This document shows positions 16,166-50,800 of a DNA stretch of 64,000 nt, piece after piece. A program made the translations under genes and the position numbers. Location: the NCBI GenBank assembly GCA_017470425.1, contig JAFUYT010000026.1, positions 54,291 through 118,290 of the forward strand. Direction: 5' to 3'. Within the stretch, counting starts at the first letter, position 1. Each line of letters begins with the position of its first letter. The DNA comes from Bacteroidaceae bacterium. GTDB lineage: Bacteria; Bacteroidota; Bacteroidia; Bacteroidales; Bacteroidaceae. The notes below the pieces were generated by a model. It had not been told where the DNA came from. It made no database searches and worked only from the letters and a program-made list of their open reading frames with translations.

Positions 16166-16221
16166 CAGCGGATTTCCAAAGAAAAGACTTAATTCATATT
16201 CAACTTAAAAATACTACAACT

Positions 16222-27583: not shown

Positions 27584-27746
27584 ATTTTCCGCGGCCACCG
27601 CGACGACGAACCAGACAGACAACAACGCCCAGCGATTTCCGTGCCTTTGCGCACCCTGACCGCGACATTCCGCGGTCCCGATCAAACCAGATCAAAGTAC
27701 AAAACAATTTTTAATTCATTTATTTATTCACCAAATTCAAATCATT

Positions 27747-29645: not shown

Positions 29646-29719
29646 TCACTCCACATCCCCGAATCTATGTCAAAACAGAGCGTATCACTCATGATTTGAC
29701 ACTACGATGAGCAACAGAA

Positions 29720-29749
29720 GCCTACCGAGGTTCGACTCCTCGGTAGGCA
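29720..29749 (+). other. tRNA-like acceptor/T-arm minihelix
   Basis: GCCTACCGAGG-TTCGACT-CCTCGGTAGGC-A: an 11-bp stem capped by a canonical T-loop sequence (TTCGAnT) plus an unpaired A. Confidence 0.5.
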
Positions 29750-29808
29750 ACAAAGAAAAAGACAGCATGAGGCCGGTGCCTCGGAAGAAAGGAATAAAAA
29801 TACACTCG

Positions 29809-30258: not shown

Positions 30259-30307
30259 GCACAGACGATTAATTAATATGAATAACAAATATCAATTTTA
30301 CACAGTT

Positions 30308-33575: not shown

Positions 33576-33580
33576 ATGGT

Positions 33581-33646
33581 AAATTGAAAGAGATAAGGAC
33601 CATAGAGAGAGGAAGGAGACCCGGCCTGACGGCCGGGGCACTGCGG
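33581..33646 (+). repeat. 66-bp intergenic element, copy A (AAATTGAAAGAGATAAGGA...GACCCGGCCTGACGGCCGGGGCACTGCGG)
   Basis: Near-identical to 35062-35127. It contains the hairpin CCCGGCC-TGAC-GGCCGGG and is followed by 18-bp-type GC-rich tandem repeats (GGCCGGGGCGCTGSGGTT). Confidence 0.85.
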
Positions 33647-33700
33647 TTGGCCGGGGCGCTGCGGCTGGGCGGGGTGCTGCGGTTGGCCGGGGCGCTGGGG

Positions 33701-35002
33701 TTGGCCGGGGCGCTGGGGCGCAAGGCGACCAGGGTCCTGGGGCTCTTGGGGCTGATAGGGCTCGTGGGGCTCGTGGGGTGCTCTGCTGAGGTGGAGGAGC
33801 CGGTGACGGCGGAGGACACACAGGGGATGCCTGTGGAGGTCCGGAGCTCCGTGACCGCCTTCGAGGAGGTGGTCAGGGGGGCGGCGGCTGCGAAGGCGGA
33901 TGGGACCTGGCCTGACGGCCAGGGCACTGCGGCGGGACAGGGCACTGCGGCGGGACAGGGCACTGGGGCGGCTGGGGCTGCGGTGACACGGGCTTGGTTG
34001 CCGCCCAGCGGGTACTCGCTCTATGATGGCGCGGACAGCAAGACGATAGGCGTGCGCTTCACGCAGAACGGGGAAGAGCCGTTGCAGGGCTACTTCTTCA
34101 AGAGCAGCGGGCAGTGGCGCGTGAGTCTGCTGGAGGGCGCTGAACTGGCGGCTGAGACGTACTACCTCTATGGCTATATCCCCCACACTACGGGTATGTC
34201 GAGCGAGATCTCCTCGACGGTGACGCCCGGCGACAACAGCGCCTACAGCAGCAAGGCCGTGATGAAGCTCAAGAACGTGCCGACCGTCATGCCCTCGGAC
34301 CTCTGCGTGGTCATCGGGGCCAAGAACGGCAGAACGGACTACCGTGAAGCCTCCGACTACAGCGTCACGGGGCTGACGCGCGGAAACTTCGAGTATGTGG
34401 CCACTGCCACCTCGGGCGAGGGCACTGGCAACTATGTCTATATGCTCTTCGACCACCTCTACTCAGCGCTGCGCATCCAGATGAAGGTGCACTCCGAATA
34501 CACGGCGCTGCGCACCATCAAGCTGAAAGAGCTTCGTCTGCAGACCGCCACCGACGACGGCGCTGCAAAGGCGAAAACAGATATCACCGTCGCGCTGGCC
34601 GCCAACGGCACCGGCAGCGACCCCATCACCAGCGTCACCTTCACACCCGACGCGACAAGCGGCGACAGCGACGGCGTGGTCTTCACGTCGGGTGCAGGCC
34701 AGACGCTGACGACCGACTACAGCACGTTCCAGAGCCACTTCATGCCTCACGGCGTGACGAAGCTGCTGCTGACGAGCACCTACGACGTCTATGACAATAA
34801 CCGGACGCCAGAACACCCCGACGGCAATCTCGTCCGTCAGGACTGCCAAGCAACTAACGCCCTCGAGATCAGCAAGCTGTTTGACCGACAGACAGAAGCG
34901 AGACGGGGCTTCAGATATACCATTAACATCACCATCCGCCCGACATACCTCTATATGTTGTCGGAGCCGGATCTGAACAATCCGACGATGGAGGTGGAGT
35001 GA
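33701..35002 (+). CDS. Fimbrillin-like accessory lipoprotein D (start uncertain)
   Basis: No in-frame ATG lies before the lipobox. The TTG at 33701 gives (M)AGALGRKATRVLGLLGLIGLVGLVGCS. The track ORF starts at the TTG at 33569 inside the repeat element. The C-terminal motif RGFRYTINITIRP is reminiscent of a pilin core. Confidence 0.45.
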   Translation: MAGALGRKATRVLGLLGLIGLVGLVGCSAEVEEPVTAEDTQGMPVEVRSSVTAFEEVVRGAAAAKADGTWPDGQGTAAGQGTAAGQGTGAAGAAVTRAWLPPSGYSLYDGADSKTIGVRFTQNGEEPLQGYFFKSSGQWRVSLLEGAELAAETYYLYGYIPHTTGMSSEISSTVTPGDNSAYSSKAVMKLKNVPTVMPSDLCVVIGAKNGRTDYREASDYSVTGLTRGNFEYVATATSGEGTGNYVYMLFDHLYSALRIQMKVHSEYTALRTIKLKELRLQTATDDGAAKAKTDITVALAANGTGSDPITSVTFTPDATSGDSDGVVFTSGAGQTLTTDYSTFQSHFMPHGVTKLLLTSTYDVYDNNRTPEHPDGNLVRQDCQATNALEISKLFDRQTEARRGFRYTINITIRPTYLYMLSEPDLNNPTMEVE

Positions 35003-35061
35003 GACTGCACCCCCTCCCGGCCTCCCCAAGGGGAGGAGAGAGGAAGGTAAAAAGGAAAAGG

Positions 35062-35127
35062 AAATTGAAAGAGATAAGGAACATAGGTAAAGGAAGGAGA
35101 CCCGGCCTGACGGCCGGGGCACTGCGG
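35062..35127 (+). repeat. 66-bp intergenic element, copy B
   Basis: Matches 33581-33646 except for about 4 positions. It lies between the stop of gene D and the start of giant gene 1. Confidence 0.85.
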
Positions 35128-35230
35128 CGCGGGGCTGCAAAGATGACCAAGGCGGCCGGGGCTGCTAAGGCGGCCGGGGCACTGCGGCGCGGGGCTGCAA
35201 AGATGACCAAGGCGGCTGGGCTGTGGGGGC
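35111..35230 (+). repeat. 60-bp direct duplication that includes the giant-gene start codon
   Basis: CGGCCGGGGCACTGCGGCGCGGGGCTGCAAAGATGACCAAGGCGG occurs at 35111-35155 and 35171-35215. This gives two in-frame ATGs (35143 and 35203). Confidence 0.9.
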
Positions 35231-38200
35231 TGTTGTGGCTGTTGCTGCTGTGGCCGCTGGGATTGGCTGCGCAGATCAAGGTGGGTGGCAGCATTTACGG
35301 CGGTGGTAACATGGGCCAGGTGCACGGCAGCACGACCGTGACCGTGAAGGAAGGTGACCTGAACAAGGTGTTCGGCGGTGCGCGCATGGCCAACGTGGGC
35401 GGCAATGCCTACGTGAACATCGACGGCGCCCACGCCACCGGCTACACCGTCATCAACTATGTCTTCGGCGGTAACGACATCGCCGGCAACATCGGCACAG
35501 CCGAGGCTGTGGGCGAGGCTCTGCCCGCAGAACTCGAGGGCAACGCCGACGGCGTGGATAACACCTGGAACACCTATGTCCACCTCTCTTCTAAGATGAC
35601 GGATGCCGTCCCCGCCACCCTCGCCTCCGACAACCAGAAGACCTACATCGGTCAGCTCTATGCCGGCGGCAATGGTGATTACTTCTACGACTCCTCGACC
35701 GCGGACGGGAAGACCACACACTACATCTACACGAAAGATCCCCTCGAAGGCGGCACGCTTCTGGAGACCATCGTCACCGACGAGGGTGATGTGGGCTTCC
35801 AGACACCTCACTTATCCAAAGCCTACCTCGACATGCAGGGCGGCTCCATCGTGTATGCCTACGGCGGCGGCAACAAAGCCACTGTGACGGAGAAGACCGT
35901 CATCCACGTGGATAACCCCAGCGAGGTCGTGAACCACCTCTTTGTCGATGAGAACGGTGTGGAGGCTGCGTCGTCGGTCTATGACGATTATGAGACTTCA
36001 GAGCCCAAGACCCTCGCCGCCGGCTACACAGAACTGCTGACCAACACCCGCTTCAAGGAGGGCATGGGCATCAACCTCGGTTTCTCGCGACCGAGCAGCG
36101 GTGACTTCCAGGTGGGCCGTCTCTTCGGTGGTAACAACCTTGAGGAAATGGCTATCCGTCCGACGTGGAACCTGCAGAGCGGCAAGATCCGTAACCTATA
36201 CAGCGGTGGCAACAAGGGTGCGATGACATCTCCCGAGGGCCTGCTGCTGGAGATCCCAGCCACTTCTTCCATCGTCGTGGATAACCTTTTTGGCGGCTGC
36301 CGTATGGCCGACGTGCGACCGTCGGTGAACGGCGTCTATACGCCGACCGTGAACCTGCCCGGCTACTACTTCCCGAATGAGCTGTCTGCGCGCGTGCTCG
36401 TGCGCGGGGGCGATATTAATAATGTATATGGCGGTAACGACGTGACGGGCCAGGTCTATGGCGGCAACGCCGTCGGCGTCTATGCCACCATCCGTGGCGA
36501 CATCTACGGCGGTGGCAACGGCGACTACCCCTACACCGACAATGAAGACCTCCGGGAGAGTAGCATCTATGGTGACCTCTACTATTCCACGAGCGGCTAC
36601 ACCACGTCCTACGACGCGCTGAACGCCTTCCGTCCCAACGCCGAGCAGGTGTCCATCCGTGTGGCGGGCGAGACCCGTCCGACCATCATCAAGGGTAGTA
36701 TCTACCTGGGTGGTAACTGCGCGTCGCTGGCCACGCACAAGGAGAATCCGATGGTGGAACTGAAGATCGGTTCCAACGTGCTTGCCGACAATGTCTATCT
36801 GGGCAACAACGGCGCAGGCATGGTCGATAAGGACTTCCTGAAGCTCTATGCCGGCTACGTGGATGAGAATGATGAGTACAACGCCAGCGAGGGCACGAAG
36901 TTCAGCAGCCTGAACCTGCGCGGCAGCTCCGAGTTTGCCGAGTACATGGAGGGCGTGGCGATGAACCTGATGCCCGCCGTGGTCTTCGACAACACCGCCA
37001 ACGGCGACCCCGCCACCTATACGCCGAACTCGAGCTACATCGGCTCCTTCTTCTGCGGCGGTAACGTGGGCAGCATGGCCGTCGAGGGCAAGGAGACCTT
37101 CACCTTCGACGAGCAGTTGAATATCTTCAATAAACTTGTCGGCGGATGCAACAATGCCAACGTGGCGGCGAGCGAGTGGAACGCGGCCTACGAGGGCGGC
37201 GTCCTCGGCAGCAAGGCCGAGCGCGCCAGCTACACCGAGGGCGGCAAGATCAAGGATCGTCTGGAAATCAATCTGGAGAAGCTGACTATCACGCCGCTGC
37301 GCTGGAACGAGGAAATGACCTATCCCGTCTGGAATACCAACAAATTCGTCACCTACCAAGCCGTGGAGAACGGCACGACCCTGACAGCAGGCGAGACCTA
37401 TTATACCTCTGACAGTGGCGCAGGCGAGTTCACGGCCGTGGGCAGTGAAGTCGCCGACGGCACAAACTATTATGAGTTCATCAATGACTTCGTGCAGGTT
37501 TCCAGCAGTGCTGTCGATAAGGATGCGCGCCTGCTCGACGGCAACGTGTATGGCGGCTGCTACAACAGCGGCCACGTGAACGGTAATGTCATCATCAACA
37601 TCAACGAAGATTTGTTGAAGAAGGACGAAATCTTCGGCACGGGCATCAGTGATTTCTACGGCAGGGCAAAGTCGGGCGTAGATTTCGAGGGGCAGCGCGA
37701 CGACCTGATGGCCGTGGCCCTCGCCGTCTTCGGCGGCGGCTATGGTGCGGACACCGAGATCTGGGGCAGCACGACCGTGAACCACAACAAGGGCTACGCC
37801 TTCCAAATCTATGGCGGCGGCGAGGAAGGAGTCGTGGGCCGGAAGGTCGCCCACACCGATGACCACGGTGAGGTCACGCAGGAGTATGAGTTCAACCCTG
37901 CCTACAGCAGCACCGTGAACCTCAACGGCACCACGCCTGTCTATTCCTCCGACGGCACCGTCGAAGGTCTTGCCGAGACCGAGTATATCTACGGCGGCGG
38001 CAACGAGGGCGATGTCTGCGGCAACACCCTCGTCAACCTGGGTAACGGCCGCATCTTCGATGCCTTCGGCGGCGCCAGCGATGCCGACGTCCTCGGTCAC
38101 ACCGAGGTCTATATCGGTCGCCAGCCCAAGGGCGACGGCACCTACAAGGCCGGCTTCCCGTGGGTGCGTGACATCGTCTATGGCGGTAATGACTTCGGCG

Positions 38201-41200
38201 GCAAGATATGGGGCGAGTACGAGACGGGCTACGACTTCACGAAGCGCCTCCGCAACTTCAGCACCGACCGCGTCTCGCTGCATGGCACGCCGACCGCCGG
38301 TGCCCCGGGCCTGCTGAAGTCCTCGTCCTACGTCGAGTACCTCGAAGGTCGTGTCGATACCATCTTCGGCGGCGGCTACGGCTTCTATGACTATTCCAAC
38401 GAGACGCTTTATGGTGCCGGCAATTCCATGCCCGTTCAGGAGAGCGCCTTTGTCAACATTCGTCCTGTGACGCACGACCACAACCTCGTCAACTACGTCT
38501 TCGGCGGCGGCACGGGCTATCCCCGCAACCGCGTGGGCGACAACGCCCAGGATCGCAGTTACGTGCTCATCGACATCCCCGACGGCGTGGAGCGCTTCGG
38601 TGCGATGGAGGTCTTCGGTGCCGGAGCCTTCAACGGCCTGGGTATGGGCTTCACCAAGGAGGAGACCTTCGCCGCCGGCTTCAATCTGGACAACGCCTCC
38701 GCCGTCGTCGATCTGCTCCACGGACAGATAGGCAACGTCTATGGCGGCAGCTACAACGAGGGCAACACGCGCCGCACGGTCGTCAACGTGCCTGCGGCAT
38801 CTACCATCCAGGTCGGCCGCATCTTCGGCGGTGCCTATGGCACGCAGATCCTGCCGCCCTGTGACGTCTATGAGACCCACGTGAACTACTTGAACACGAG
38901 TGAGAACGCCCGCGTGAGCGCCATCTACGGTGGCAACAACAACGAGCGCCGCTCGCTCTACACCCATGTCAACATCTCCTCGCCCGTATGGTCCAACAAG
39001 GAGAAAGGCTATATGGCCAAGGTCTATGGTGCCGGGCGCGGTATCGACACTTGGTCGGAATACACCGAAGTGAACCTGCTCAGCGGCGCCAAGGTCTATG
39101 AGGCCTACGGCGGCGGCGAGATGGGTCACGTGCTCAATGCCGAGAGCGTACAGCGGTATATGCAGCTGTACCATGATACGCCCTCGTCACAAATCTCCCA
39201 TCAGGATCCCTTCTGGAGCCAGACCGGGAACTGGGTCGGCGGAACGGTCGGCGGTACGCTGATAGACGATGCCGATCTCCGTGACCGCTGGGATCGCGAG
39301 TGGAAGGATGCCTGGACGTTCGGCGATTACTATACGCCGACGGCGACGGACGCCGAAGATGCTGATGGCGACGGTGATACCGAAGAAATCTCTTTCACCG
39401 ACTATGCCACCAACGCTGCCACGAACCTCACCAACAGCCTGCAGGTGCGCACGGCCGAGCTGGACGAACGCGACTACAGCGGCTACGCTGACGACGACAA
39501 AGCACGTAACTATCAGAAATACAACACCAACGTCATTATCCACGAGGGAGCCTCTGTCGGGAACTACGCCTATGGCGGCGGCTATGGTGAGGTCGCGACC
39601 CACCTGAGCGGCGACACCTACGGCAACACCTATATCGCCCTGCTCGGCGGCTCCGTCACCAAGGACCTCTACGCCTCTGGTTCGGCTGGTAATGTCAACG
39701 ACCTCTTCGGCGTGGGTGCCTACAATGCCAGCACGAACCCCACCGGCTTCACAGCCACCGCCACGGCCTACGTGAAGGGCGGCACGTGCCGCAACGTCTA
39801 TGGCGGCGGATGGAAGGGCGATGTCGGAACCCACTCGGGCACCATCGCAGACGATCCCTCCGGTGACATCCCCGGCGAGACGCACGTCGTCATCGGCGAC
39901 CTCGCAGGCACCAGCTTCACCAACGGTATCCCCGCCATCCAGCGCAACGCCTATGGCGGCGGCGAGGGTGAGGATGAAGACGGCGGCGCCGTCTATGGCA
40001 CCACCCATCTGACCCTTAACAACGGCTACATAGGCTATGCCTACAATGCTGAGGGCAGCGATAACCCCAAGACCACAGACTTCGACGAGCGCTACGAGGA
40101 GAAGATCGAGGACGAGACCCGCACCATGCCCAACACGTGGCTCACGGAGGCTGGCTGTCTGTTCGGCGGCGGCTATACCGACAACAGCTTCGTCGATAAG
40201 ACGCAGGTGAACATTTATGGCGGTCACGTCCGCAACAGCGCCTTCGGCGGCGGCGAGGTGGCTCCCATCGGGCGCGGTGACATGAAGGAGAAGGCGGGCG
40301 GCAGCGACTATGAACTGAAGGGCATCTACCGTCCCGGCAAGACGCTGGTCAAGATGTTCGGCGGTCATGTTCATCAGAACGTCTTCGGCGGCGGCCGCGG
40401 CTTCGACAACCTGGCCCGCGTCGGCTCGCTCCACTGTCCCGGCTACATCTTCGGACAGACGGAGGTGCGCATCCACGGCGGCGAGATCGGCACGGCTGAG
40501 GGCGTGGAGGACGGCGACGGCAACGTCTTCGGCGGCGGCGACGTAGGCTTTGTGTATAGTGCCTACGAGAATCCCGACGGCAGTTTTGCTCAGGGTAAGA
40601 AAGACGGTGTCAGATACGACGGCATCTACCAGGGCTACTATTACAAACACAATGGAGAGGATTTCGTAACCCTCACTGTAGATAGGGATGAAGACGGTGT
40701 AGCAGATACAGACGGTGAAGGGAACCAGATCAAAGAGCGCCAGTTCACCGAGGACTGCAAGGTGCTCGTCGAGCCCAACATGAAGGTCATCACTCCCGTC
40801 ACCATCAACGGGCACAGCTATGAGCCGGGCGCCTTCGTACCCATTGCCGACCTGAATACGCTGAAGAACAAGACACTGGATGCTTCCACCTGGGAGTGCC
40901 TGGATCCCACCGGCATCATCATCCATAACGCCGTCTTCGCGGGCGGTAATATGCCTTCGGGCTCAAAGGCCACCAGCGCCAACACCGCCTCAGTCTATGG
41001 CAACGCCACCGCTTCGGTAGAAGACATCTTCCACCGCGACATGATCACGCTCGGTACCCGCCACACCGGCGGTCTCTACGGCGATGGCAACCTGACCCTC
41101 GTGGATGGTTACCGCGAACTGAACATCACCAACTACGGCACCGACTACTACAGTATCGCTCAGGAAATCAGCATCGGCGACTATCATAACCTGCCCGACC

Positions 41201-44200
41201 GCGAGGCCGACTACTACGAACTGCGCTACACCTGTCTGCGACCCTGTCAGGACAAGGATGGCACGCGCTACCGTCCAGAAAGCGTGGAGGACGGTGTCAC
41301 CATCAAGGCCTCGACGATCACGGCCGACGAGATGCAGAACCTCTTCCTCGAGCAAGTGAATGGCAAATGGGAATCGGTCAAGGATAACGGAATAGCCATC
41401 CTCAAGTATGACGAGGATGAGCACGAGTGGGTGCCAAACCCCAACGATGACAATCCCTACTGGAAGGAGAGCGGTGTGCTGCCCATCTATGCGGGCCGCC
41501 TGATGAACAGCATCCAGCGTGCCGACTTCTGCGGTGTCTTCGGCAGTCGCATGGTGATGCAGGGTGCCAAGGACCGCGTGCCTGAGGAGGCCGACTTCAC
41601 CAATTATACGATTAACCGCGTGCGTGAGGTGTCGCTGAACAAGAAGGAGTCGGTGATTACGAGCGATCAGACTATTCCCGCCACCAGTGGCGAATACTAC
41701 AAGTTCCGCGTCCACGGCAACTACTTCGGCATCTATAACATCGTGAACTACTTAGGTGCCCTGACCAGCGACGTGGATTTCGGTGATGTGCGCAAGACCG
41801 ACAACACCACGGATAATACCCGGTACAAGTCTGCAATCACCATTGACGCGAACACCTACGACTACGAAAGCGCAAATGCCACCTACTACAACTGGAAGCG
41901 CGCTCACATCAAGGATAAGACACGCAACAACGGCAGCAGCTACAACAAGGTGGCCCTGGCCTCCGGCGTCTATCTGGAGCTGACCACCGAGGAGAGCACG
42001 GGCGACGGCCTCTACGAGAAGGTGTGGGGACCCATCACGGGTGTCGTAGAGCTCGACCTCATCAACGTCTCCACTGGTATCGGCGGCGGCTTCGTCTATG
42101 CCAAGAACCAGCACGGCACACGAGCTGCCACCAAGCAACCGCCGCTTCACCAGAACACCACGCTGACAGCCCTGAACAGGACGGCCGTCACCCAGTGGGA
42201 CTACGAATATCCAACGGCCGACGGCAGCAAGGTGGAGTGGGAGACCTCCGGCAACTTCGTACACAGCACCCAGACCATCATCGACGACTGCTATAACATC
42301 AGCAACAAGTACCTGGGCTCCGTCAACCCCGACGGCTCGGGGGCTATGCCCGCCCACTTCTGGTACATCAAGGGCTCCACCTACGTCTATGACCAGTACA
42401 TCTCGGCCTACACGGGTACCACCAATGCCTACAGCGAGACCGTCGATATCCCGCTGACCATCGCCGCTGCCTCCCACGGACGCATGAAGCTCCTGGATGT
42501 GCAGCCCAACCTCTACGCCTACTACGCCTCCGAGGGTGTGCCCTTGGAGAGCGGCAAGCGCATCATCATCAACGACAAGACTTACTACCTGAACGACCCC
42601 ATCAGCTACTGGGATTGGTATCTGCTGAGCAAGTCGGAGCAGAAGCTGTTCGTGCCGCAGACCTATACCAACTGCGTGACCTACCAGCTGGGTGGTGAGC
42701 TCCATGAGGCCGGCACCGTCGTGATGACTCCCGGAGAGTTCGAAGACTTCATGGATGATGACCATGTATATCTGGATGCCGACGGCGATCCCATCAAGAA
42801 AGCCGACACGAGCGCTGCCGACGACGAATACATCTTCCGTTCGTCCAACAACGTCAGCCACGACACCGGCTATCTGCTGACCTACGAGCTGAACAACCCC
42901 AGCCAGTGGGATAACTGGTTTACCCTCAAGAGCGGCTCCTACAGGGATAAGAAGACACTCGCCGAGTACGGGGCAATGAGTGCCAGCGACAAGGAGAAAT
43001 ACTACGACGGTCCCACCTATCGCATCGACCCGACGAAGGTGACCGGCGACGGCATCCTGCTCGGACAGCGCTCCTACAAGGAGGGTCAGCTCATCACGGA
43101 GAGTGTGGAGACGACCTATCAGGCCGCAAAGACGGCACATTCCACAGCCATCCCCGGCGATCAGGCCACCTTCGTCCCGGCATTCATCGTCACCGAGAAG
43201 ATCACCGTCACCGATCCGGAGACAGGCAGAGAGACCCATTACAACGAGGGCGTGGCCGTCTCCTCGACCTTTGCTGCAGCCCATTCCACCAGCACCGAAG
43301 CTGCCTACCTCTGCACCAGCTCCATCCAGCTCACGAAGGAGAACGTCATCTACAAGGACTCCAAGGTGACAGCCTCCGAGCGTACTGCCTATATCAATGA
43401 TGTGAAGAGTAAGATGGGTGCCACCTATCAGGATATGACGCTCGACGCCATCAAGGACTTACCCACTACAGGAGCAGGCGCTATCACTGCCGAGAAGAAG
43501 AACCAGCTGATCCAGCAGGCCACCCTGCGCGATGAACTGACAAACAACATCGTTCCTGCCTACTACTGTACTGCCGAGGGCTACTACGGCGGTAACTACT
43601 ACGAGAAAGACCACAACTACCGTGGCCTCGAGGCCTGGAGCTCGCTCTCGGAGGATGATCACAAGAAGTTCGTCTTCAACTACGACGCCCTTGACCTGCT
43701 CATCGACTCGGACTATGATAACCCGGAAGGCGAGAAGTACCAGTACGACGGCAACTATCTGACCGAAGAGGCCGTCCGCAACGCCGATACGGGCAACAAG
43801 GCCGGTTACTCCGTCACAACGAGTGTGGATTACACCGCATCGTACAACGACAGTGAACACCCATTGCCCGTCACCAGTATGACTGTCAACCGCGATGGCA
43901 CACCGACGACCACCACCTCACTGGAGGAAGGCGATGAGCTCACCCGCGAACAGTACGAGAGTCTGCCCAACGAGCAACGCCACTTCTCGCCCATCGCCGT
44001 GAAGAGCGGAACTGACACCTACTACATCGTCCACACCGCCTTCCAGGTGGGCAGCACGCCTTACGCTGTCGGTGAGACGATCAGCTCCGAAACGTACAGC
44101 AGCCTGCCAACGACGGAACAGGGCTATGTCACGCAGCTTAAGTTCACCAGCGCCCCTGAGGACCAGACCATCTACTATTGCCGCGAGAGTTATGAAGGCA

Positions 44201-47200
44201 AGACAGAGGTAACAGCCATCCCCGGCACTACGGTGACAGGTGGAACGGCCCACACCGATGGCGGCAAGAGCGTGGCTCAGGGAACCATCATCACCAGCGG
44301 ACAGTACGAAGTTCTTCCCAACGACCAGAAGAACTTCACCATCCACGGCGTCTCGCCCACCGAGACATCGACGCTTTATGTCAGCCGCGAGAGCGACATC
44401 TACGACCTCTCCAAGGACAAAATCATCACCGTCATCTACCAGTATGACTACGACGAGACCGACGGCTCAGGCAACGTCACGCCCATCAGCGAGCGCCACG
44501 TGGTGAACATCCACCTGACGTTCAAGAGCGGCGTGCCCACCGTGGAGGACATCACCGCGCCCGAGATCATCCTGCCCGGTAACTTCATCACCCTGCGCGA
44601 ACCCGCCGTGACACCCGGTGCCTATGAGATCACGGGCGGCGGATGGGAGCTCTTCGAGTCGCAGCGCGATGCTGAGAGCCACACCAACGGCATCGATTAC
44701 GACCCGAACTTCGATGCGCTCTACTGGTACCAAGACGGCCACTATGTCGCCTACTACGCCAAGAGCTATCTCGGCCGCACCTACTCCAACGCCGTGCCCG
44801 TATCCGTGGCCAACTACCACGACCTGAAGCGCGTGATGGACGACACGGATCACCACTACTACATCGACAACGCCAACGTCAAGCGCGATCCGAAAATCTA
44901 CATCAACGACTACAGTGGCAGCACACCCGAGCAGAACGGCCTTGACCTCTTCAAGAAGCTCTACGACTTGAGTGTGCTCGACGGTTCCGTCGTCGAGGGC
45001 GATCCCCTCTATGGTCACGCCCTCCTCAACTCCCGCGTCCGTGCAGGTGATAACCTCGAGTTCTTCCTGCGCACCGATATCGACCACAGCACCAAGCCGA
45101 ATCCTGCCTATGATGCCGAAGACCCGGAGAGCCCCGCACGCATCGCGGCACCCTGGACATCCATCGCCCCCGCCGACGGCGCCACCTGCTTCGAGGGTGT
45201 CCTCCACGGCGACGGCCACACCCTCAGCGGCCTCGACCACTCGCTCTTCGGCAAGCTCTGCGGCTCGGTCTATAACCTCGGCATCACCGGCTCCTTCAAC
45301 ACGGCCGGCGTGGCCGACACGGGCGATGGCTACGTGGAGAGCTGCTGGGTGAAGACGACTGCCACCACGCCGCTTGAGACCAAGCCCTACGCCGTCTTCG
45401 GCAATCCCACCGCCGAGAGCGGCTATCAGGTGGTCAATAGCTACTTCTGCGACAGCAATAATAATCTCTATAACACCACGACTGCTGACGGTATCACGAC
45501 CTCCGGCGGCGCCCGCGGCACCGCCACGGCCATGTCCGCCCGCGCATTCTACAACGGCACCGTGGCCTACGACCTGAACAACTTCTACCTCTACAAGCGC
45601 TACAGCGACCACACTACGCCCGCCGGTTCCACCGTCGAGTACCAGTACCTCCTGCCCGACAATCCCGACGTGCAGACCGGCCGCTACGGCAGCAACCCGT
45701 CGCTCTGCTCCTCGGGCTATGAGCGCAAGCTGAAGTACGTCGAAGACCGCTATGCCGACGGTGACTTCCGCTATGCCGGCGGCACCATCCCCTCCACCGA
45801 CGACGAGCGCTACTGGATAGCCGTCAGCGAAGATCCCGAGACGCACAAGGACATCGAGACCGTGCGCTTCTCACCCCTCTGGCCCGACGACTACATCTTC
45901 TTCGGACAGAAGCTGACCTACGGTTACTCGGCCACCTATGCTCATCAGGATGTGCCTACGGCTGTCGTGCGCGACGGCGGACGCCTCTCCCTGAACCCCG
46001 ACGCCAATCGCGTCTATCGCGCTCCCGCCTACTATCGCAACAGCACGATGGGTGTCGCCCACTTCAACCCCGCCGTCTTCCTGGCGCAGAAGGAGAAGCT
46101 GACTCCCGAGCAGATCGCAGCCAGCGCTGTTGCCCGCACGGCATACCCCGGCATGACCGCCATCGACTTCGCCGGCCACAATGACATCGTCGATGCCGGC
46201 GGCACCCGCAAGGCTTATCAATTGGGCAGTGTGTCCGTCGGCTTCCCCGCCGGAAGCCCGGCCTTCTACCCGCCGCTCCTCGACGACGGCGGCCTCACCG
46301 CCATCAGCAACTGCGACGAGACACAGAACCTCCTCGCCTATGTACCCGCCGCTGCCCCGGCCGCCGAGGGCGCCTATGCCAACGCCGCCACCCACGGCGT
46401 GCTGACCTCCTACTTCGGCGATGCCGCCTTCGACAGCTCCTATGACAACAGCGATGGCTACCGCCTCGTAGCGGAGAACGACGTCATCATCAATGGCCAT
46501 CTCGTGCAGAGCGACCTGACCGCCACCAACGACCATCTCCTCGTGGATATGCAGGACTTCAACGCACCGCTCGCCTACACCTTCGACGGCGACCACCGCA
46601 TGTGGTACCAGCGCAAGCCCCTTGACTCGGAATATGTCGATACGGGCAGCGGCTGGCAGGGCATCAGCATCCCGTTCACCGCAGAGCTCGTGACCACCGA
46701 CGTGAAGGGTGAGATCACCCACTTCTACGGCGGCAGCGAGACCAGCAAGAACGGCACCAGCACCAAGATCGGCCACGAGTACTGGCTGCGTCAGTTCGAT
46801 GCCATCGCCAAAGAGGACGGCGAGGGCAAGAAGGCGATGGCCACCTTCAACTATCCCGCCGCAGGCGACGGCACTTCGGTCATCGCTGACAAGAACGTCA
46901 CCAACACCTTCCTCTGGGATTACTACTACCAGAACGAGGACATCCACGACCAGAAGGACCTCAACAAGGACATCTACCTCCAGTACAGGCAATATTATAA
47001 GAACGCGCGCACGTACGCGAACTACGCCTTCCTGACGGCTGCCACGCCGTATCTCCTCGGACTCCCGGGCAAGACCTACTACGAGTTCGACCTCAGCGGT
47101 AAGTTCACGGCTGCGAACACCGCCGCCGCCATCCCGTCGCTCGCCAAGCAGACCGTCACCTTCGCCTCCGCCACGGGTGCCACCATCGGCGTGAGCGACA

Positions 47201-47700
47201 GCGAGATGGCGGGCGTCACGAGGAACCTGAGCAAGGGCAAGGACTACGTCTTCACCTTCAAGCCCAACTACCTCACCGAGGACCTGACGACGGAGCACTA
47301 CACCCTGGCGGCCGACGGTAGCCAGTACGACCACGTCACCGCCGCAGGCGGCTCTGCGGTCAGCGGCGGCGCCACCGTCCTGCCCTTCCGTCCTTACTTC
47401 GAGGCCAGCGCCAGCGCCGGCGTCAAGGAGATGATGCCCGGCACCATCCTCTTCACCCGTGCAGGCAGCGAGCTCGAGGAAGGACCCGAAAGCGCCCTTG
47501 ACGGTACCATCGAGATCTACGCACGCGGACGCACCATCATCACCCGCTCCCACATGAAGGAGCCCACCACCGTCCGCATCGTCAACATCGGCGGCATCAC
47601 CGTCACCAACTACGTCCTGCAGCCTGGACAGACCATCGAGACCCCCGTCCAGGCCCACGGCGCCTACATCGTCAACAAGAAAAAGATCTTTATCCACTAA
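35203..47700 (+). CDS. Giant secreted surface protein 1 (4165 aa): signal peptide, YGGGN-repeat beta-helix-like region, large non-repetitive middle, GLUG-like segment, T9SS C-terminal domain
   Basis: Single uninterrupted ORF (track 34999..47700). The ATG at 35203 gives MTKAAGLWGLLWLLLLWPLGLAAQ. There are dozens of (V/I)(Y/F)GGG(N) repeat motifs in the N-terminal 1700 aa or so. FEGVLHGDGHTLSGLDHSLFGKLCGSVYNLGITG resembles GLUG-motif domains. See the CTD feature. Confidence 0.85.
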   Translation: MTKAAGLWGLLWLLLLWPLGLAAQIKVGGSIYGGGNMGQVHGSTTVTVKEGDLNKVFGGARMANVGGNAYVNIDGAHATGYTVINYVFGGNDIAGNIGTAEAVGEALPAELEGNADGVDNTWNTYVHLSSKMTDAVPATLASDNQKTYIGQLYAGGNGDYFYDSSTADGKTTHYIYTKDPLEGGTLLETIVTDEGDVGFQTPHLSKAYLDMQGGSIVYAYGGGNKATVTEKTVIHVDNPSEVVNHLFVDENGVEAASSVYDDYETSEPKTLAAGYTELLTNTRFKEGMGINLGFSRPSSGDFQVGRLFGGNNLEEMAIRPTWNLQSGKIRNLYSGGNKGAMTSPEGLLLEIPATSSIVVDNLFGGCRMADVRPSVNGVYTPTVNLPGYYFPNELSARVLVRGGDINNVYGGNDVTGQVYGGNAVGVYATIRGDIYGGGNGDYPYTDNEDLRESSIYGDLYYSTSGYTTSYDALNAFRPNAEQVSIRVAGETRPTIIKGSIYLGGNCASLATHKENPMVELKIGSNVLADNVYLGNNGAGMVDKDFLKLYAGYVDENDEYNASEGTKFSSLNLRGSSEFAEYMEGVAMNLMPAVVFDNTANGDPATYTPNSSYIGSFFCGGNVGSMAVEGKETFTFDEQLNIFNKLVGGCNNANVAASEWNAAYEGGVLGSKAERASYTEGGKIKDRLEINLEKLTITPLRWNEEMTYPVWNTNKFVTYQAVENGTTLTAGETYYTSDSGAGEFTAVGSEVADGTNYYEFINDFVQVSSSAVDKDARLLDGNVYGGCYNSGHVNGNVIININEDLLKKDEIFGTGISDFYGRAKSGVDFEGQRDDLMAVALAVFGGGYGADTEIWGSTTVNHNKGYAFQIYGGGEEGVVGRKVAHTDDHGEVTQEYEFNPAYSSTVNLNGTTPVYSSDGTVEGLAETEYIYGGGNEGDVCGNTLVNLGNGRIFDAFGGASDADVLGHTEVYIGRQPKGDGTYKAGFPWVRDIVYGGNDFGGKIWGEYETGYDFTKRLRNFSTDRVSLHGTPTAGAPGLLKSSSYVEYLEGRVDTIFGGGYGFYDYSNETLYGAGNSMPVQESAFVNIRPVTHDHNLVNYVFGGGTGYPRNRVGDNAQDRSYVLIDIPDGVERFGAMEVFGAGAFNGLGMGFTKEETFAAGFNLDNASAVVDLLHGQIGNVYGGSYNEGNTRRTVVNVPAASTIQVGRIFGGAYGTQILPPCDVYETHVNYLNTSENARVSAIYGGNNNERRSLYTHVNISSPVWSNKEKGYMAKVYGAGRGIDTWSEYTEVNLLSGAKVYEAYGGGEMGHVLNAESVQRYMQLYHDTPSSQISHQDPFWSQTGNWVGGTVGGTLIDDADLRDRWDREWKDAWTFGDYYTPTATDAEDADGDGDTEEISFTDYATNAATNLTNSLQVRTAELDERDYSGYADDDKARNYQKYNTNVIIHEGASVGNYAYGGGYGEVATHLSGDTYGNTYIALLGGSVTKDLYASGSAGNVNDLFGVGAYNASTNPTGFTATATAYVKGGTCRNVYGGGWKGDVGTHSGTIADDPSGDIPGETHVVIGDLAGTSFTNGIPAIQRNAYGGGEGEDEDGGAVYGTTHLTLNNGYIGYAYNAEGSDNPKTTDFDERYEEKIEDETRTMPNTWLTEAGCLFGGGYTDNSFVDKTQVNIYGGHVRNSAFGGGEVAPIGRGDMKEKAGGSDYELKGIYRPGKTLVKMFGGHVHQNVFGGGRGFDNLARVGSLHCPGYIFGQTEVRIHGGEIGTAEGVEDGDGNVFGGGDVGFVYSAYENPDGSFAQGKKDGVRYDGIYQGYYYKHNGEDFVTLTVDRDEDGVADTDGEGNQIKERQFTEDCKVLVEPNMKVITPVTINGHSYEPGAFVPIADLNTLKNKTLDASTWECLDPTGIIIHNAVFAGGNMPSGSKATSANTASVYGNATASVEDIFHRDMITLGTRHTGGLYGDGNLTLVDGYRELNITNYGTDYYSIAQEISIGDYHNLPDREADYYELRYTCLRPCQDKDGTRYRPESVEDGVTIKASTITADEMQNLFLEQVNGKWESVKDNGIAILKYDEDEHEWVPNPNDDNPYWKESGVLPIYAGRLMNSIQRADFCGVFGSRMVMQGAKDRVPEEADFTNYTINRVREVSLNKKESVITSDQTIPATSGEYYKFRVHGNYFGIYNIVNYLGALTSDVDFGDVRKTDNTTDNTRYKSAITIDANTYDYESANATYYNWKRAHIKDKTRNNGSSYNKVALASGVYLELTTEESTGDGLYEKVWGPITGVVELDLINVSTGIGGGFVYAKNQHGTRAATKQPPLHQNTTLTALNRTAVTQWDYEYPTADGSKVEWETSGNFVHSTQTIIDDCYNISNKYLGSVNPDGSGAMPAHFWYIKGSTYVYDQYISAYTGTTNAYSETVDIPLTIAAASHGRMKLLDVQPNLYAYYASEGVPLESGKRIIINDKTYYLNDPISYWDWYLLSKSEQKLFVPQTYTNCVTYQLGGELHEAGTVVMTPGEFEDFMDDDHVYLDADGDPIKKADTSAADDEYIFRSSNNVSHDTGYLLTYELNNPSQWDNWFTLKSGSYRDKKTLAEYGAMSASDKEKYYDGPTYRIDPTKVTGDGILLGQRSYKEGQLITESVETTYQAAKTAHSTAIPGDQATFVPAFIVTEKITVTDPETGRETHYNEGVAVSSTFAAAHSTSTEAAYLCTSSIQLTKENVIYKDSKVTASERTAYINDVKSKMGATYQDMTLDAIKDLPTTGAGAITAEKKNQLIQQATLRDELTNNIVPAYYCTAEGYYGGNYYEKDHNYRGLEAWSSLSEDDHKKFVFNYDALDLLIDSDYDNPEGEKYQYDGNYLTEEAVRNADTGNKAGYSVTTSVDYTASYNDSEHPLPVTSMTVNRDGTPTTTTSLEEGDELTREQYESLPNEQRHFSPIAVKSGTDTYYIVHTAFQVGSTPYAVGETISSETYSSLPTTEQGYVTQLKFTSAPEDQTIYYCRESYEGKTEVTAIPGTTVTGGTAHTDGGKSVAQGTIITSGQYEVLPNDQKNFTIHGVSPTETSTLYVSRESDIYDLSKDKIITVIYQYDYDETDGSGNVTPISERHVVNIHLTFKSGVPTVEDITAPEIILPGNFITLREPAVTPGAYEITGGGWELFESQRDAESHTNGIDYDPNFDALYWYQDGHYVAYYAKSYLGRTYSNAVPVSVANYHDLKRVMDDTDHHYYIDNANVKRDPKIYINDYSGSTPEQNGLDLFKKLYDLSVLDGSVVEGDPLYGHALLNSRVRAGDNLEFFLRTDIDHSTKPNPAYDAEDPESPARIAAPWTSIAPADGATCFEGVLHGDGHTLSGLDHSLFGKLCGSVYNLGITGSFNTAGVADTGDGYVESCWVKTTATTPLETKPYAVFGNPTAESGYQVVNSYFCDSNNNLYNTTTADGITTSGGARGTATAMSARAFYNGTVAYDLNNFYLYKRYSDHTTPAGSTVEYQYLLPDNPDVQTGRYGSNPSLCSSGYERKLKYVEDRYADGDFRYAGGTIPSTDDERYWIAVSEDPETHKDIETVRFSPLWPDDYIFFGQKLTYGYSATYAHQDVPTAVVRDGGRLSLNPDANRVYRAPAYYRNSTMGVAHFNPAVFLAQKEKLTPEQIAASAVARTAYPGMTAIDFAGHNDIVDAGGTRKAYQLGSVSVGFPAGSPAFYPPLLDDGGLTAISNCDETQNLLAYVPAAAPAAEGAYANAATHGVLTSYFGDAAFDSSYDNSDGYRLVAENDVIINGHLVQSDLTATNDHLLVDMQDFNAPLAYTFDGDHRMWYQRKPLDSEYVDTGSGWQGISIPFTAELVTTDVKGEITHFYGGSETSKNGTSTKIGHEYWLRQFDAIAKEDGEGKKAMATFNYPAAGDGTSVIADKNVTNTFLWDYYYQNEDIHDQKDLNKDIYLQYRQYYKNARTYANYAFLTAATPYLLGLPGKTYYEFDLSGKFTAANTAAAIPSLAKQTVTFASATGATIGVSDSEMAGVTRNLSKGKDYVFTFKPNYLTEDLTTEHYTLAADGSQYDHVTAAGGSAVSGGATVLPFRPYFEASASAGVKEMMPGTILFTRAGSELEEGPESALDGTIEIYARGRTIITRSHMKEPTTVRIVNIGGITVTNYVLQPGQTIETPVQAHGAYIVNKKKIFIH
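47497..47697 (+). other. T9SS C-terminal sorting domain-like segment of giant protein 1
   Basis: LDGTIEIYARGRTIITRSHMKEPTTVRIVNIGGITVTNYVLQPGQTIETPVQAHGAYIVNKKKIFIH follows the type A Por-secretion-tail pattern (I.IY.., V.I.N..G..V, L..G.YIV...K). This is pattern recognition only. Confidence 0.6.
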
Positions 47701-47763
47701 AGAACGTAACATGATACAAGATATGTATTGCAAGATAAGAGAACACATTGCGAAGCGTAATTT

Positions 47764-47825
47764 TTTCTCATGCATGATAAAAGCGTTTCTCACGCGTGAG
47801 AAAACGTTTTCTCATACATGGGAAA
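47764..47825. repeat. Three 18-bp (near-)palindromes TTTCTCA-YRYR-TGAGAAA spaced 22 bp apart
   Basis: Units at 47764, 47786 (perfect: TTTCTCACGCGTGAGAAA) and 47808. The core TCTCACGCGTGAGA is identical to the units at 11817 and 11861. The flanking GCAT(C)ATGA..AGCGTT is also shared. Confidence 0.85.
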
Positions 47826-47866
47826 CGGCGGAAGAACGGCAGGCGTTGCGTCGCACGTCGCGTCGC

Positions 47867-50800
47867 ATGTCATGGGCTGTGGTATCGCTTCACACGTTAT
47901 GTGCGGTGATGATGATGTTGTGCTTTGGCACCACGAGGGCGTGGGGGCAGGTGGCAGACGGTGTGTATTACATCCAATATTCAGGTAATAGTTACTATCT
48001 GTGGCCTACTGCTCCGACGAGCAGCGGCTGGCCATGCCTGACCTCATTCTCGGGAACAGATGTCCCTGAGACAGGGTTGGACTATAACTTCGGTGCTTTC
48101 GACTCATCGTATTGTACATGGATTGTCGTCACTGACGGGGATTATCAGAACATCATCAATGCCCGCTACGGGAAGTATGTCATTTGGTTGAGTAATGGAA
48201 ATGCAGGCCGTAATGTCGTGCTGGAGGATAATGGGCAAGACCCTTCTACCGGGCAGACCAGGGCTGATGCGACCCGTGCCCAGTTCAATATCACAGGAAC
48301 AGGCAACAAGGTATTGGTTAAGCCCTATACAGGTTCTAATTCATTCAATATTAAAGGGAGCCATTATGATTATATCACGGCATTCCAGAATGTCGTAGGA
48401 TCAAATCAGTCCCTCCTTCAGTTCTCTACTTCAAACAATGAATGGACATTTACAGAGCATAAGTTAGCCGCCCCCACCATCAGCTGCCCCGAGGGTACTG
48501 CCACGGTGACAGACAATGTGGGGCTGCCAGCGGGCTACAATGTGCGCTATACGGTTGACGGTACGACCCCGACGGCATCCAGTCCGATCCTTCCCGTTGG
48601 TGGGTATGAGGTCAGTGATGTATGTACGATGAAGGCTGTGATTGAGCGCTATGGTGTGGTGCTGACAGCTGTCGCTTCACAAGAGGTGGAGCCCAGTGTG
48701 CGGAAACCGGGATTCACGCTAAGCGCCGACGGCTCCGTCACCATCACGGCTGAAACGGGCCAGACCATCTATTATACGTTAGACGGTACTGATCCAACGA
48801 CCTCGACCCCGACTTCTGCTACAATGTCAAAGACCATTCCAGAGGCAGACGTGCAGTCGGCAACAGCCATCAAGGCCATTGCCTACGACTCAGGTGAAGA
48901 CCTCTCTTCCGGTGTCGCCACTCAATCCTTGGCCAGCTACAACTATCAGATTGTCAACCGCTCGAGCGCAGTGGGCGTGAGCCTCTCGGTGAAGCGGGCC
49001 GTGGGCGCTCCGCTGAGCAGCTATACCAGCATCCCTGCTGCCATCCGCAGCGAGTATATCAGCGACGAGACGGTGCGCTTCTACACGTTCGGCGGCGACT
49101 TCGCTGCTGCGAACCTCATCGAGGAGAACAGGATTACGCAGACGCCGGAGAGCGCCGCGAACATCTATGTCACCTACACGACCGAACACCTCAGCGAGAA
49201 GTTCCTGCCGCTGACCATTGCCAACTCGTACAACATCAAGGCAGGCGGTGAATACCTGTATTACACGGGCAGCGCCCTGGGAACCATCTCTGATGCCGCC
49301 ACATCGAAGACCGACAATGAATACATCTGGAATATTACAGGCGAGGATCCCTACAATATGGTGCTCCGCAATATCGGTGCAAGCCAGTACTTCCGCTATG
49401 ACGGGTCAACCCGCTCACTCAATGCCTCCTCGCAGCCATTTATCCTGAAGGGCACTGCCAACCACGCGACGATTACCACAGGCGTCGTTGCCGAGGATGT
49501 CACGCTGAGAACCATCGATGGTGCGGAGCTCACGTTGAAGGTGAACACTGTGGTGCTCCCGTTATCCTTCACGCTGATTGACAAGGCAGGAAAGGTCATC
49601 AAAGCTGGAATCACATATGAGGGAAGCTTTGCGCTGCCGACAGCCTGGCGCAGCCCTCTTGTCTCGCAATACAAGTATTATAAGAAGTATAGCACACTGA
49701 CAGCGGGTGTCTATGCCTTTGACGAGGAAGACCGGATTACAGAAGTAGGGCAGAGAGAATCTAACGTCATCTATGTCACCTACGACGTCAACGACCTGCT
49801 GGACCTCGACGGTCGCAACCTGCTTGGTGCCGTGGGCAAGGAGGGCGGCAAGACGTATATGCTGAAGTTCGCCAGTGGCACCGCTTTTAACCAAGAGAAC
49901 GGCAGCGACGGCGTGATGGACGCCGCACGCACGCCCGTCTATCCCTACAGCAACGGCGATGCCCACCTCTATGTCTATGGCGAGGAGCGGTGGCAGGAGC
50001 AGCTGGCCAGCGGCGCCAGCACCCGCGCGCGCTGGCTCTGGTATCTGGAGCCGGCCGGCGGACAGCTCGACCCGTACCACGTGAGGATCTCGTCGTACTC
50101 GACACAGACGAGCTATAAGGATACCGAAGCGGGAACCACCACCAACTTCCACTCCTATCTGCGCACCTACAAGCCCGAGGGCTACGCTTCCGTAGTGACG
50201 GGCGTCACCAACGACAACCCGTTGGCACATGGCGGGGTGGAAGGCGGTCCGGCCGACAAGAGCGATGCCACCGAGTATATGCTCATCGGCACATCGCTCG
50301 GCAGCCTGAAGCTGATCACCACCAGCGAGATCGACGGCGCGCCCGCGAACAGCGTGGCGGCGTATGGCATGCGACAGACCGTGAACAGCTTCGAGCAGTA
50401 CTGGAAGAACAACCCCACGGCCTACAATATCATCAAGGACGCCACCGGCGCTGGCGTGCTGGAAGGCACCAGCGTCAATGCCGATCTTCCCTCAGATCAG
50501 CAAGCGGCGCTGACAGCCAAGGGCTGGCACGTCTATAGCGCATGGGCCAATGCAGCCGACTGGTCTTCCAACTCCAAGCTGAGCAAGCACGTCGGCGATG
50601 GCAAGCACTGGTTCCAGACAGTGGCGATGGGCGACGGCTCGATGACCTTCGTGGATACCGAACTGGCCACGATGCTCATTCTGCTCGACCAGCACGGCTG
50701 GGAGATTGCCCGTGTTCACCTGCCCAGCGGCCCCACCGACCCGAACCGTGCCGCCCGCTATCGCGAGATCCACAAGTACAGCAGCCCGATGGTGGCGCGC

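Follow-up and report, generated by a model that had tools for sequence, protein, structure and literature searches.

We analyzed a window of 64,000 nucleotides (nt) from a Bacteroidaceae bacterium (GenBank assembly GCA_017470425.1, contig JAFUYT010000026.1, positions 54,291 to 118,290 of the forward strand; all positions below are those of the window), in which a single plus-strand gene at 35203 to 47700 encodes a protein of 4,165 amino acids (aa), here called giant 1. We read giant 1 as a type IX secretion system (T9SS) cargo whose gene is the last but one in a cluster that encodes fimbrillin-like (type V pilin-like) lipoproteins, and which would be exported and displayed at the cell surface by the mechanism set out below; we place the probability of this reading at about 0.75. 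That giant 1 is a T9SS cargo, considered by itself and by way of its orthologous sequences, appears very probable. The original prediction for this stretch, made from the letters alone, described the protein and its tail; the most informative context, namely, the fimbrillin-like cluster, a nearly invariant partner gene directly upstream, and a second giant open reading frame (ORF) downstream, was absent from it.

We conclude from sequence comparison and structure prediction that the C terminus of giant 1 (aa 4099 to 4165; 47497 to 47697, plus strand) is a T9SS sorting domain (C-terminal domain [CTD]) of type A, divergent in sequence and with a short loop. When the orthologous tails were aligned column by column, 30 of 36 matched the hidden Markov model (HMM) TIGR04183 at an E value of ≤1 (the best at 2.1e-7), and 13 of the 36 matched PF18962. 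Scanned singly, five of nine orthologs scored above the curated TIGR04183 cutoff of 23 bits (34.3, 30.8, 28.5, 27.1, and 24.9 bits), and the subgroup with a shorter last hairpin, which includes giant 1, scored 13.6 to 18.9 bits or nothing. The ortholog from Prevotella sp. tc2-28 (WP_143025550.1) is listed in RefSeq under the name “T9SS type A sorting domain-containing protein.” The CTDs of Prevotella intermedia are defined by motifs B (a glycine in a strand-turn), D (GxY followed by I or V), and E (a basic residue near the C terminus), and short and long CTDs of that species are both cleaved and glycosylated (PMC11969387). The counterparts of these motifs in giant 1 (B, VRIVNIGG; D, GAYIV; E, KKKIFIH) align with the near-invariant G, G.Y, and K columns of the family, and a conserved CTD lysine is known to contact PorV (PMC10994853).

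Structure prediction is compatible with this assignment. AlphaFold2 places seven strands in the last 62 residues (residues 1138 to 1199 of the C-terminal model) at predicted local distance difference test (pLDDT) values of about 75 to 88, and solved CTDs are beta-sandwiches of 3 + 4 strands (PMC11285876). A Foldseek search with the 1,200-residue C-terminal model returned a weak, small match to 8gl8_D (probability of 1.0, template modeling [TM] score of 0.57, E value of 0.028). Because the CTD is the sole part of the type A cargo RemZ that is resolved in 8GL8 (PMC10994853), the 75-residue chain D of that entry is most likely the RemZ CTD. Searching the PDB by sequence with the tail profile yielded no match. 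The type A CTD that the original prediction had seen in the last 67 residues or so is indirectly borne out by the tails of the orthologs, with the three motifs and the seven predicted strands in keeping with it, but not by the HMM score of giant 1's own tail, a point to which we return. Of the family representatives that are at least 3,000 aa long, 64 of 79 end in a tail of the giant 1 type, and some members resembling the second giant end in a canonical YPNP-type CTD; the glycine-rich YGGGN solenoid described below is therefore a recurrent T9SS cargo passenger in the Prevotella-type group.

At the other end of the protein, the gene is as continuous as had been claimed. The plus-strand frame is free of stops from 34999 to 47700, and translation from the ATG at 35203 gives 4,165 aa followed by a TAA stop at 47698 to 47700, i.e., one uninterrupted ORF of 12.5 kb. 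There are two in-frame ATGs, at 35143 and 35203, because a 60-nt duplication includes the start codon; the signal peptides of the orthologs are short and agree with the start at 35203. An exact database lookup of the protein from both start codons found no entry. Read by inspection, the first 24 residues (35203 to 35274, plus strand), MTKAAGLWGLLWLLLLWPLGLAA, which precede QIKVGG, have the makings of a Sec/signal peptidase I (SPI) signal peptide: the n-region is basic, the hydrophobic core is 15 residues long, and a site of the AxA type follows, at which a cut after LAA is predicted to expose a glutamine. The clear signal peptide of the original prediction is upheld in the orthologs as well, whose N termini share this layout, reading AQ(A/G)Q up to the cut and I.IGG after it (consensus, QAQIxIGGNVYGGGN). 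SPI substrates of Bacteroidetes typically expose an N-terminal glutamine (the Q-rule; PMC5837995).

The 5′ region of giant 1 (35099 to 35238, plus strand) consists of a 29-nt GC-rich palindromic element and then the 60-nt duplication. The palindrome, GACCCGGCCTGACGGCCGGGGCACTGCGG, is present in three copies (33618 to 33646, 33904 to 33932, and 35099 to 35127), against none expected by chance, and every copy precedes a short tandem array with a period of 18 or 28 nt. The copies lie just upstream of or inside the 5′ ends of the partner gene (33618 and 33904) and of giant 1 (35099), and palindrome plus array are possible candidates, though candidates only, for a regulatory or phase-variation role.

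The passenger that follows the signal peptide opens with the YGGGN-repeat region (aa 25 to 1917; 35275 to 40953, plus strand), which has 31 to 33 units and is predicted to be all-beta and solenoid-like. The motif [VILFYAM][FYAS]GG[GNACSHY] occurs 33 times in aa 1 to 1950, compared with 1.55 times on average, and never more than 6 times, in 2,000 shuffled sequences. With an HMM made from the repeat units, 31 copies are detected at aa 24 to 1912, compared with 0.3 per shuffled copy. The base spacing of the repeats is 25 to 31 aa, with many longer gaps resulting from inserted loops. The periodic repeat had been noted earlier and is real, but it is not confined to the N-terminal third, as was then supposed: the zone of [VI][YF]GGG[N] motifs, aa 31 to 1917, makes up 46% of giant 1. 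The acidic patch DADGDGDTEE is likewise present (aa 1386 to 1395; nt 39358 to 39387) but lies within the repeat zone rather than in a nonrepetitive middle. It sits in the most variable island of the protein, as judged from a profile of 66 full-length orthologs (aa 1301 to 1450; 39103 to 39552, plus strand), where aa 1351 to 1400 are the least conserved of the whole protein (23% consensus identity and 49% gaps) and where the tblastn alignments of many loci are interrupted (aa ~1320 to 1440). We considered the patch as a conserved calcium or ligand site and rejected it as such, since it belongs to the least conserved island.

AlphaFold2 models covered aa 1 to 1200 and the last 1,200 residues of giant 1. 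The N-terminal model, computed from an alignment of 70 homologs, has a mean pLDDT of 91.2 and a predicted TM score (pTM) of 0.88 and is all-beta: it has few helices and 65 strands, whose median length is 5. For a model of 1,200 residues, a pTM of 0.88 means that the relative placement of the modeled parts is confident, as is expected of a continuous stack and not of beads on a string. The motif's hydrophobic-aromatic pair forms the C-terminal end of a strand in 18 of 20 cases, so that GGG(N) would make the turn that follows. The N-terminal half is, on this model, likely to be a beta-solenoid, whose length we estimate at ~15 to 20 nm if there are three strands per coil, and the beta-helical fiber of the original prediction is in keeping with the model, but the fold class is not demonstrated. 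Pfam and NCBIfam scans of giant 1 (the whole protein at an E value of ≤1 and ten pieces at ≤10) produced no usable match, and a PDB sequence search with the whole protein produced none. Long Foldseek alignments of the N-terminal model were obtained only to beta-helix proteins, namely, VacA, Hap, and a phage “parallel beta-helix” protein, and were insignificant (E value of ≥0.1 and TM score of ≤0.19).

The solenoid is widely shared: a profile search with the N-terminal part across 1.84 billion representatives recovered 938 cluster representatives at an E value of ≤1e-3 and 306 at ≤1e-30, and many of the 938 are 3.7 to 5.3 thousand residues long. A shorter relative of ~1,900 aa, encoded at 10001 to 15742 of a locus from the Bacteroidaceae metagenome-assembled genome (MAG) RUI473 (our loci L001 and L053), has only aa 1 to 1542 of the solenoid in common with giant 1; its cluster has the same upstream genes without the long C-terminal half. 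This relative ends differently, and the solenoid is therefore used as a module.

Relatives of giant 1 itself are found at no fewer than 503 places in species-representative genomes, which belong to Prevotella, Prevotellaceae, and Bacteroidaceae and are nearly all rumen or gut MAGs; the one exception is a short contig binned as Acutalibacteraceae. For locus comparison, we took 80 loci from rumen and gut Prevotella-type genomes, and in 65 of them the gene is a single intact, colinear ORF of 3,787 to 4,465 aa. Among the intact carriers is the cultured isolate Prevotella sp. tc2-28, whose protein, the WP_143025550.1 mentioned above, has 3,873 aa. In an alignment of 66 full-length sequences, invariance reaches 97% or more at 609 positions, and most of the length is conserved. 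The long ORF is the normal, selected state of the gene.

The C-terminal half is modeled less tightly than the solenoid (pLDDT of 81 and pTM of 0.73 for the last 1,200 residues) as a series of beta-rich domains. The most conserved nonrepeat core of the protein lies at aa 2090 to 2300 (41470 to 42102, plus strand), where consensus identity reaches 0.82 to 0.86, the highest in the protein. This core contains RADFCGVFGSRMVMQGA.DRVPE, HGNYFGIY, and GVVELDLINV..GGGFVY, with invariant residues R2106, D2108, C2110, S2115, R2116, D2124, R2125, and H2171, and could be a functional site; no catalytic motif was recognized among these invariant residues, and the core has no family match. Farther along, a conserved segment at aa 3329 to 3450 (45187 to 45552, plus strand; CFxGxLHGDGHTxSGL...LCGxVYNLGVTGSF) forms a small run of short strands (residues 368 to 451 of the C-terminal model). 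The GLUG resemblance claimed for its 45.19- to 45.36-kb part is not supported: the Pfam Glug model (PF07581) finds nothing in the giant 1 segment at an E value of ≤10 and matches 0 of 21 orthologous segments at ≤1, and we rejected GLUG membership of the segment on the failure of this HMM on giant 1 and the 21 orthologs. An HMM of the segment, compared with the zone of the second giant that does match Glug, scored an insignificant -2 bits, and a PDB sequence search with the segment profile was empty.

These results also bear on whether the protein might be an enzyme, that is, a surface or secreted polysaccharide degrader in which the repeat forms a pectate lyase-like parallel beta-helix with a catalytic groove for plant cell walls. 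The hosts are rumen Prevotella, many T9SS cargoes of fiber degraders are enzymes (PMC5831590), the long Foldseek alignments lead only to beta-helix proteins, and the adjacent second giant bears CHB_HEX_C_1 and Fn3_assoc domains. Yet those fold matches are insignificant, the PDB holds no sequence match for giant 1, the invariant residues include no recognized catalytic motif, and the Pfam and NCBIfam scans revealed no glycoside hydrolase, lyase, esterase, or carbohydrate-binding module at the thresholds given above; moreover, the neighborhood is pilin-like and is not a polysaccharide utilization locus. We regard a degradative role as improbable and retain the T9SS cargo as the better account of giant 1.

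The gene for giant 1 lies near the 3′ end of a plus-strand cluster of fimbrillin-like lipoprotein genes, with the second giant next to it. The cluster is headed by a gene for a DUF3575 protein (23360 to 24934, plus strand) and continues with a 411-aa lipoprotein gene (25012 to 26247, plus strand; weak DUF5119 match), two fimbrillin-like lipoprotein paralogs of 632 aa (27747 to 29645, plus strand) and 686 aa (30182 to 32242, plus strand), and an Mfa_like_1 lipoprotein gene (32346 to 33575, plus strand; 409 aa, lipobox LLAAC) that matches PF13149 with an E value of 3.4e-6 and 27.7 bits (cutoff, 27). Both paralogs carry a lipobox, and blastp shows their paralogy with the Mfa-like gene and with genes of the RUI473 locus. 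All six cluster products have a lipobox, as type V pilins do. The Mfa-like counterparts at two of the related loci (L002 and L004) give weak P_gingi_FimA matches, and the gene order of the cluster is syntenic in L001, L002, and a subset of the GTDB loci.

Immediately before giant 1 is the partner lipoprotein gene (33569 to 35002, plus strand), the true start of which is uncertain and the conserved part of which spans about 33932 to 35002 (356 aa). A partner homolog stands directly upstream of the giant on the same strand in 77 of the 80 loci, and a profile search recovered 430 unannotated relatives. The partner has no relative in Pfam, NCBIfam, or the PDB; its profile aligns locally with the Mfa-like neighbor in hhalign (94% probability over 52 columns), and 1 of 34 partner homologs has an Mfa_like_1 match.

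Two further ORFs are interspersed in the cluster, one of the PD-(D/E)XK_3 nuclease family (PDDEXK_3; 26580 to 27083) and one Bro-N-like (29707 to 30258) between the two paralogs, both in a low-GC island at ~26000 to 31000 (0.39 to 0.48, compared with about 0.6 elsewhere). The island, which also holds the paralog at 27747 to 29645, has the look of a cassette that was acquired recently or of an insertion. The window also contains a tRNA-Met (CAT) at 9139 to 9212 on the minus strand and a tRNA-Ser (TGA) at 11642 to 11727 on the plus strand and no other Rfam family; the Rfam and tRNA scans have no bearing on giant 1.

This neighborhood invites comparison with Mfa5 of Porphyromonas gingivalis, which is encoded by the distal gene of the mfa cluster, is alone among the Mfa proteins in having an SPI signal and a CTD, reaches the pilus in a manner that depends on PorU and on this CTD, and in some strains is encoded by two tandem genes (PMC8512630). 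Giant 1 similarly occupies the distal end of a fimbrillin-like cluster, combines an SPI signal, among neighbors that are lipoproteins, with a C-terminal T9SS CTD, and is followed in tandem by a second giant. The two proteins differ in other respects. Whereas Mfa5 is about 1,200 aa in length, giant 1 is far larger, at 4,165 aa, and has a YGGGN-repeat half that is absent from Mfa5; no sequence similarity between them was detected. Mfa5 has a von Willebrand factor A (vWA) domain (PMC8512630), for which the Pfam scans of giant 1 gave no match. The lack of this domain places giant 1 outside the Mfa5 family, but by analogy it may work comparably, with the partner lipoprotein docking it.

A stronger version of the comparison would make the giant the tip or a shaft extension of a type V pilus, captured after T9SS export by the partner and the fimbrillin-like subunits in the way that Mfa5 is captured on Mfa1 pili. 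The position of giant 1 at the 3′ end of the fimbrillin-like cluster, the partner's presence upstream in 77 of 80 loci, the pilin-type segment common to the partner and the Mfa-like neighbor, and the Mfa5 precedent itself (PMC8512630 and PMC13655056) all speak for this possibility. Giant 1, however, is without the vWA domain, the part suggested to link Mfa5 to other accessory pilins (PMC8512630), none of the cluster products could be confidently recognized as a stalk or anchor pilin, and type A cargoes are normally joined to a surface glycolipid, not to pili (PMC9143113). We consider incorporation into a pilus possible, though rather unlikely, and proceed with a T9SS cargo encoded beside, and probably presented by, pilin-like lipoproteins.

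The second giant ORF (47723 to 64000, plus strand) starts 22 nt past the giant 1 stop codon and runs without a stop to the window end, giving >5,426 aa. Its CHB_HEX_C_1 and Fn3_assoc matches fall at aa ~330 to 400 and a single Pfam Glug motif falls at aa ~1415 to 1442; NCBIfam has no match to it. It contains 49 YGGGN-type repeat units at aa ~2210 to 5340, of the same class as those of giant 1. The long minus-strand ORFs that overlie it, e.g., 51134 to 53191, look like antisense shadows.

Two giants in tandem, their size and filamentous repeat architecture, and the hypervariable islands could also be seen as marks of a toxin fiber, a contact-dependent weapon comparable to polymorphic toxins, contact-dependent inhibition (CDI) systems, or Rhs proteins, with the islands being products of an arms race. 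Several features of giant 1 speak against this: its C terminus is a secretion tail in place of a toxin module, its C-terminal half is conserved and not polymorphic, no small immunity-like gene comes next (the second giant begins after 22 nt), and no toxin, immunity, Rhs, or two-partner secretion (TPS) family was matched in the Pfam and NCBIfam scans. We hold a weapon of this kind to be highly improbable and keep to the T9SS surface cargo.

As a very large, repetitive T9SS surface protein, giant 1 resembles SprB, RemA, and RemZ of Flavobacterium johnsoniae. RemA and RemZ have type A CTDs, and the predicted tail of giant 1 superposes weakly on 8gl8_D, probably the CTD of RemZ (PMC10994853). Its repeats are of a class other than those of the F. 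johnsoniae adhesins, and beyond the tail we found no sequence homology to them. Unlike SprB, which has a type B CTD and a PorP/SprF-like partner (PMC9143113), giant 1 has a type A tail and a pilin-like lipoprotein partner. Gliding is not known in Prevotella.

The loose glycine repeats also recall those of the chlamydial Pmp proteins (GGA and FxxN) and of autotransporter and TPS passengers, which are thought to form beta-helix stalks for adhesion. The original prediction had called the repeats similar but not obviously equal, and we would keep this as an analogy only: giant 1 has no Pfam or NCBIfam match to these families, and the Foldseek alignments of its N-terminal model to VacA (6nyf) and Hap (3syj) are long but insignificant (E value of ≥3 and TM score of ≤0.19). 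The export route differs as well, because giant 1 ends in an Ig-like T9SS tail, predicted to be a small beta-sandwich, in place of the beta-barrel translocator of autotransporters.

The closest parallel for the tail is found in the T9SS cargoes of P. intermedia, which belong to the same genus-level group and follow the same logic of motifs B, D, and E. The longer tails of the giant 1 family, which pass the HMM, and the shortened ones, which fail it, echo the long and short CTDs of that species (PMC11969387). Unlike the short CTDs of P. intermedia, which are shortened between B and D, that of giant 1 is shortened by six residues between D and E, and whereas the P. intermedia cargoes were shown by mass spectrometry, the cargo status of giant 1 is predicted.

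We propose the following course for giant 1. The protein would first be exported by Sec and cut by SPI after LAA, exposing the N-terminal glutamine. Its predicted C-terminal Ig-like domain of ~65 residues would then be bound by PorV and the SprA/Sov translocon, and the protein would cross the outer membrane; the first step is read from the sequence, the second from homology. By analogy with P. gingivalis and P. intermedia, a PorU-type sortase would remove the tail and join the new C terminus to a surface glycolipid, since tail removal and glycolipid anchoring take place in these species (PMC9143113 and PMC11969387). On the cell surface, aa 25 to 1917 would, according to the model, form a rigid beta-solenoid in which each [VI][YF]GGG[N] marks a strand end and a glycine turn, and this solenoid would present the conserved, nonrepetitive, beta-rich C-terminal half (~2,200 aa) as the putative binding part. 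At the surface, the giant is probably docked or presented by the upstream partner lipoprotein together with the other fimbrillin-like proteins, in the manner of Mfa5 and the Mfa pilus, an analogy drawn from gene order. The terms “adhesin” and “covalently attached,” which the original prediction applied to giant 1, are carried over from the biology of P. gingivalis and P. intermedia and are not proven for this protein. Its likely role is to let rumen Prevotella attach to other cells, to host surfaces, or to plant material.

Several observations weigh against this account. At thresholds as loose as an E value of ≤10, giant 1's own tail gave no match to PF18962 or TIGR04183, whether scanned within the whole protein or as a C-terminal piece of 100, 115, or 200 aa; the tail is six residues shorter in the last hairpin than those of the passing orthologs (YIVN------KKKIFIH). 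No T9SS machinery genes were identified in the 64-kb window, of which the first ~23 kb and the other frames were unscreened; P. intermedia has a working T9SS (PMC11969387). Foldseek returned no match at an E value of ≤0.001 for either model, i.e., for aa 1 to 1200 against the PDB and BFVD and for the last 1,200 residues against the PDB, and the only structural neighbor is that of the tail. Because the modeled parts have no structural neighbor except the tail, neither the solenoid nor the adhesin reading is demonstrated. For the neighbors, the assignment as fimbrillins consists of one threshold-level Pfam match plus weak matches, and PDB sequence searches with four neighbors (two of them, the partner and the Mfa-like protein, as profiles) and an NCBIfam scan of the six cluster proteins found nothing.

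The integrity of the gene has exceptions, too. A locus (L003; ENA ERZ28654209, scaffold_5755) that is 99.5% identical to the window over 41945 to 57740 has a 31-nt frameshifting deletion at window positions 44789 to 44819 and, in addition, a Tyr-to-stop change after codon 749 of the second giant; these lesions in both giants may reflect inactivation at the strain level, phase variation, or a faulty assembly. Relatives at L002, L004, L022, L069, and L077 are interrupted, those at L022, L069, and L077 by frame changes, and because of these the giant gene is not always kept intact.

Such interruptions raise the question of whether the long ORF is instead a decaying gene or a misassembly of two genes of ~2,000 aa. 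The first two homolog searches, made with two 1,200-aa pieces that had >200 matches each, would seem to say so, in that none of the 240 matches listed had an annotation or a Pfam domain or exceeded 2,084 aa; in L002 and L004, the annotation shows two adjacent genes of ~1,800 to 2,050 aa each, and L003 is frameshifted. The tblastn alignments, however, resolve these splits into individual lesions at different places. In L004, one reading frame is divided by a single TAG (9899 to 9901) where giant 1 has the arginine of EADYYELRYTC; in L002, the two “genes” are parted by a deletion with a frameshift (16100 to 16200); and L003 has the 31-nt deletion. The second halves lack a signal peptide and begin at arbitrary points, the ORF is intact and single in 65 of 80 loci, including that of the cultured isolate, and the whole length is conserved. 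We accordingly rejected the notion that there are normally two genes of ~2,000 aa, given the one-off stops and frameshifts at different sites and the 65 intact orthologs, and single lesions in several relatives explain why protein databases hold many pieces of at most ~2,000 aa. A pseudogene or chimera is already largely refuted, and we give it next to no credence; the single, selected gene for a T9SS cargo stands.

Prevotella-type bacteria are dominant in the rumen, and their hold on feed particles is little understood. A bolder idea, which we offer tentatively and think unlikely to hold in full, is that of a hitherto undescribed hybrid appendage in which pilin-like lipoproteins, including the partner, act as a base or adaptor that captures one or two T9SS-exported YGGGN mega-proteins (~4,000 and >5,400 aa), forming a large rumen-Prevotellaceae fiber for plant particles. 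If true, the Mfa5 principle, that of a T9SS cargo on a type V pilus, would hold for a new class of passenger as well and on a far larger scale. Shortened CTDs such as that of giant 1 escape the standard HMMs for T9SS cargo, which implies that cargo counts based on these HMMs are too low. The family is uncharacterized, being without Pfam coverage and without a solved relative beyond the secretion tail. Because it is widespread (at least 503 places and 938 representatives), conserved, and accompanied by its partner in 77 of 80 loci, it is a specific candidate for a major structure on the surface of these bacteria, and the cultured carrier Prevotella sp. tc2-28 makes it testable.

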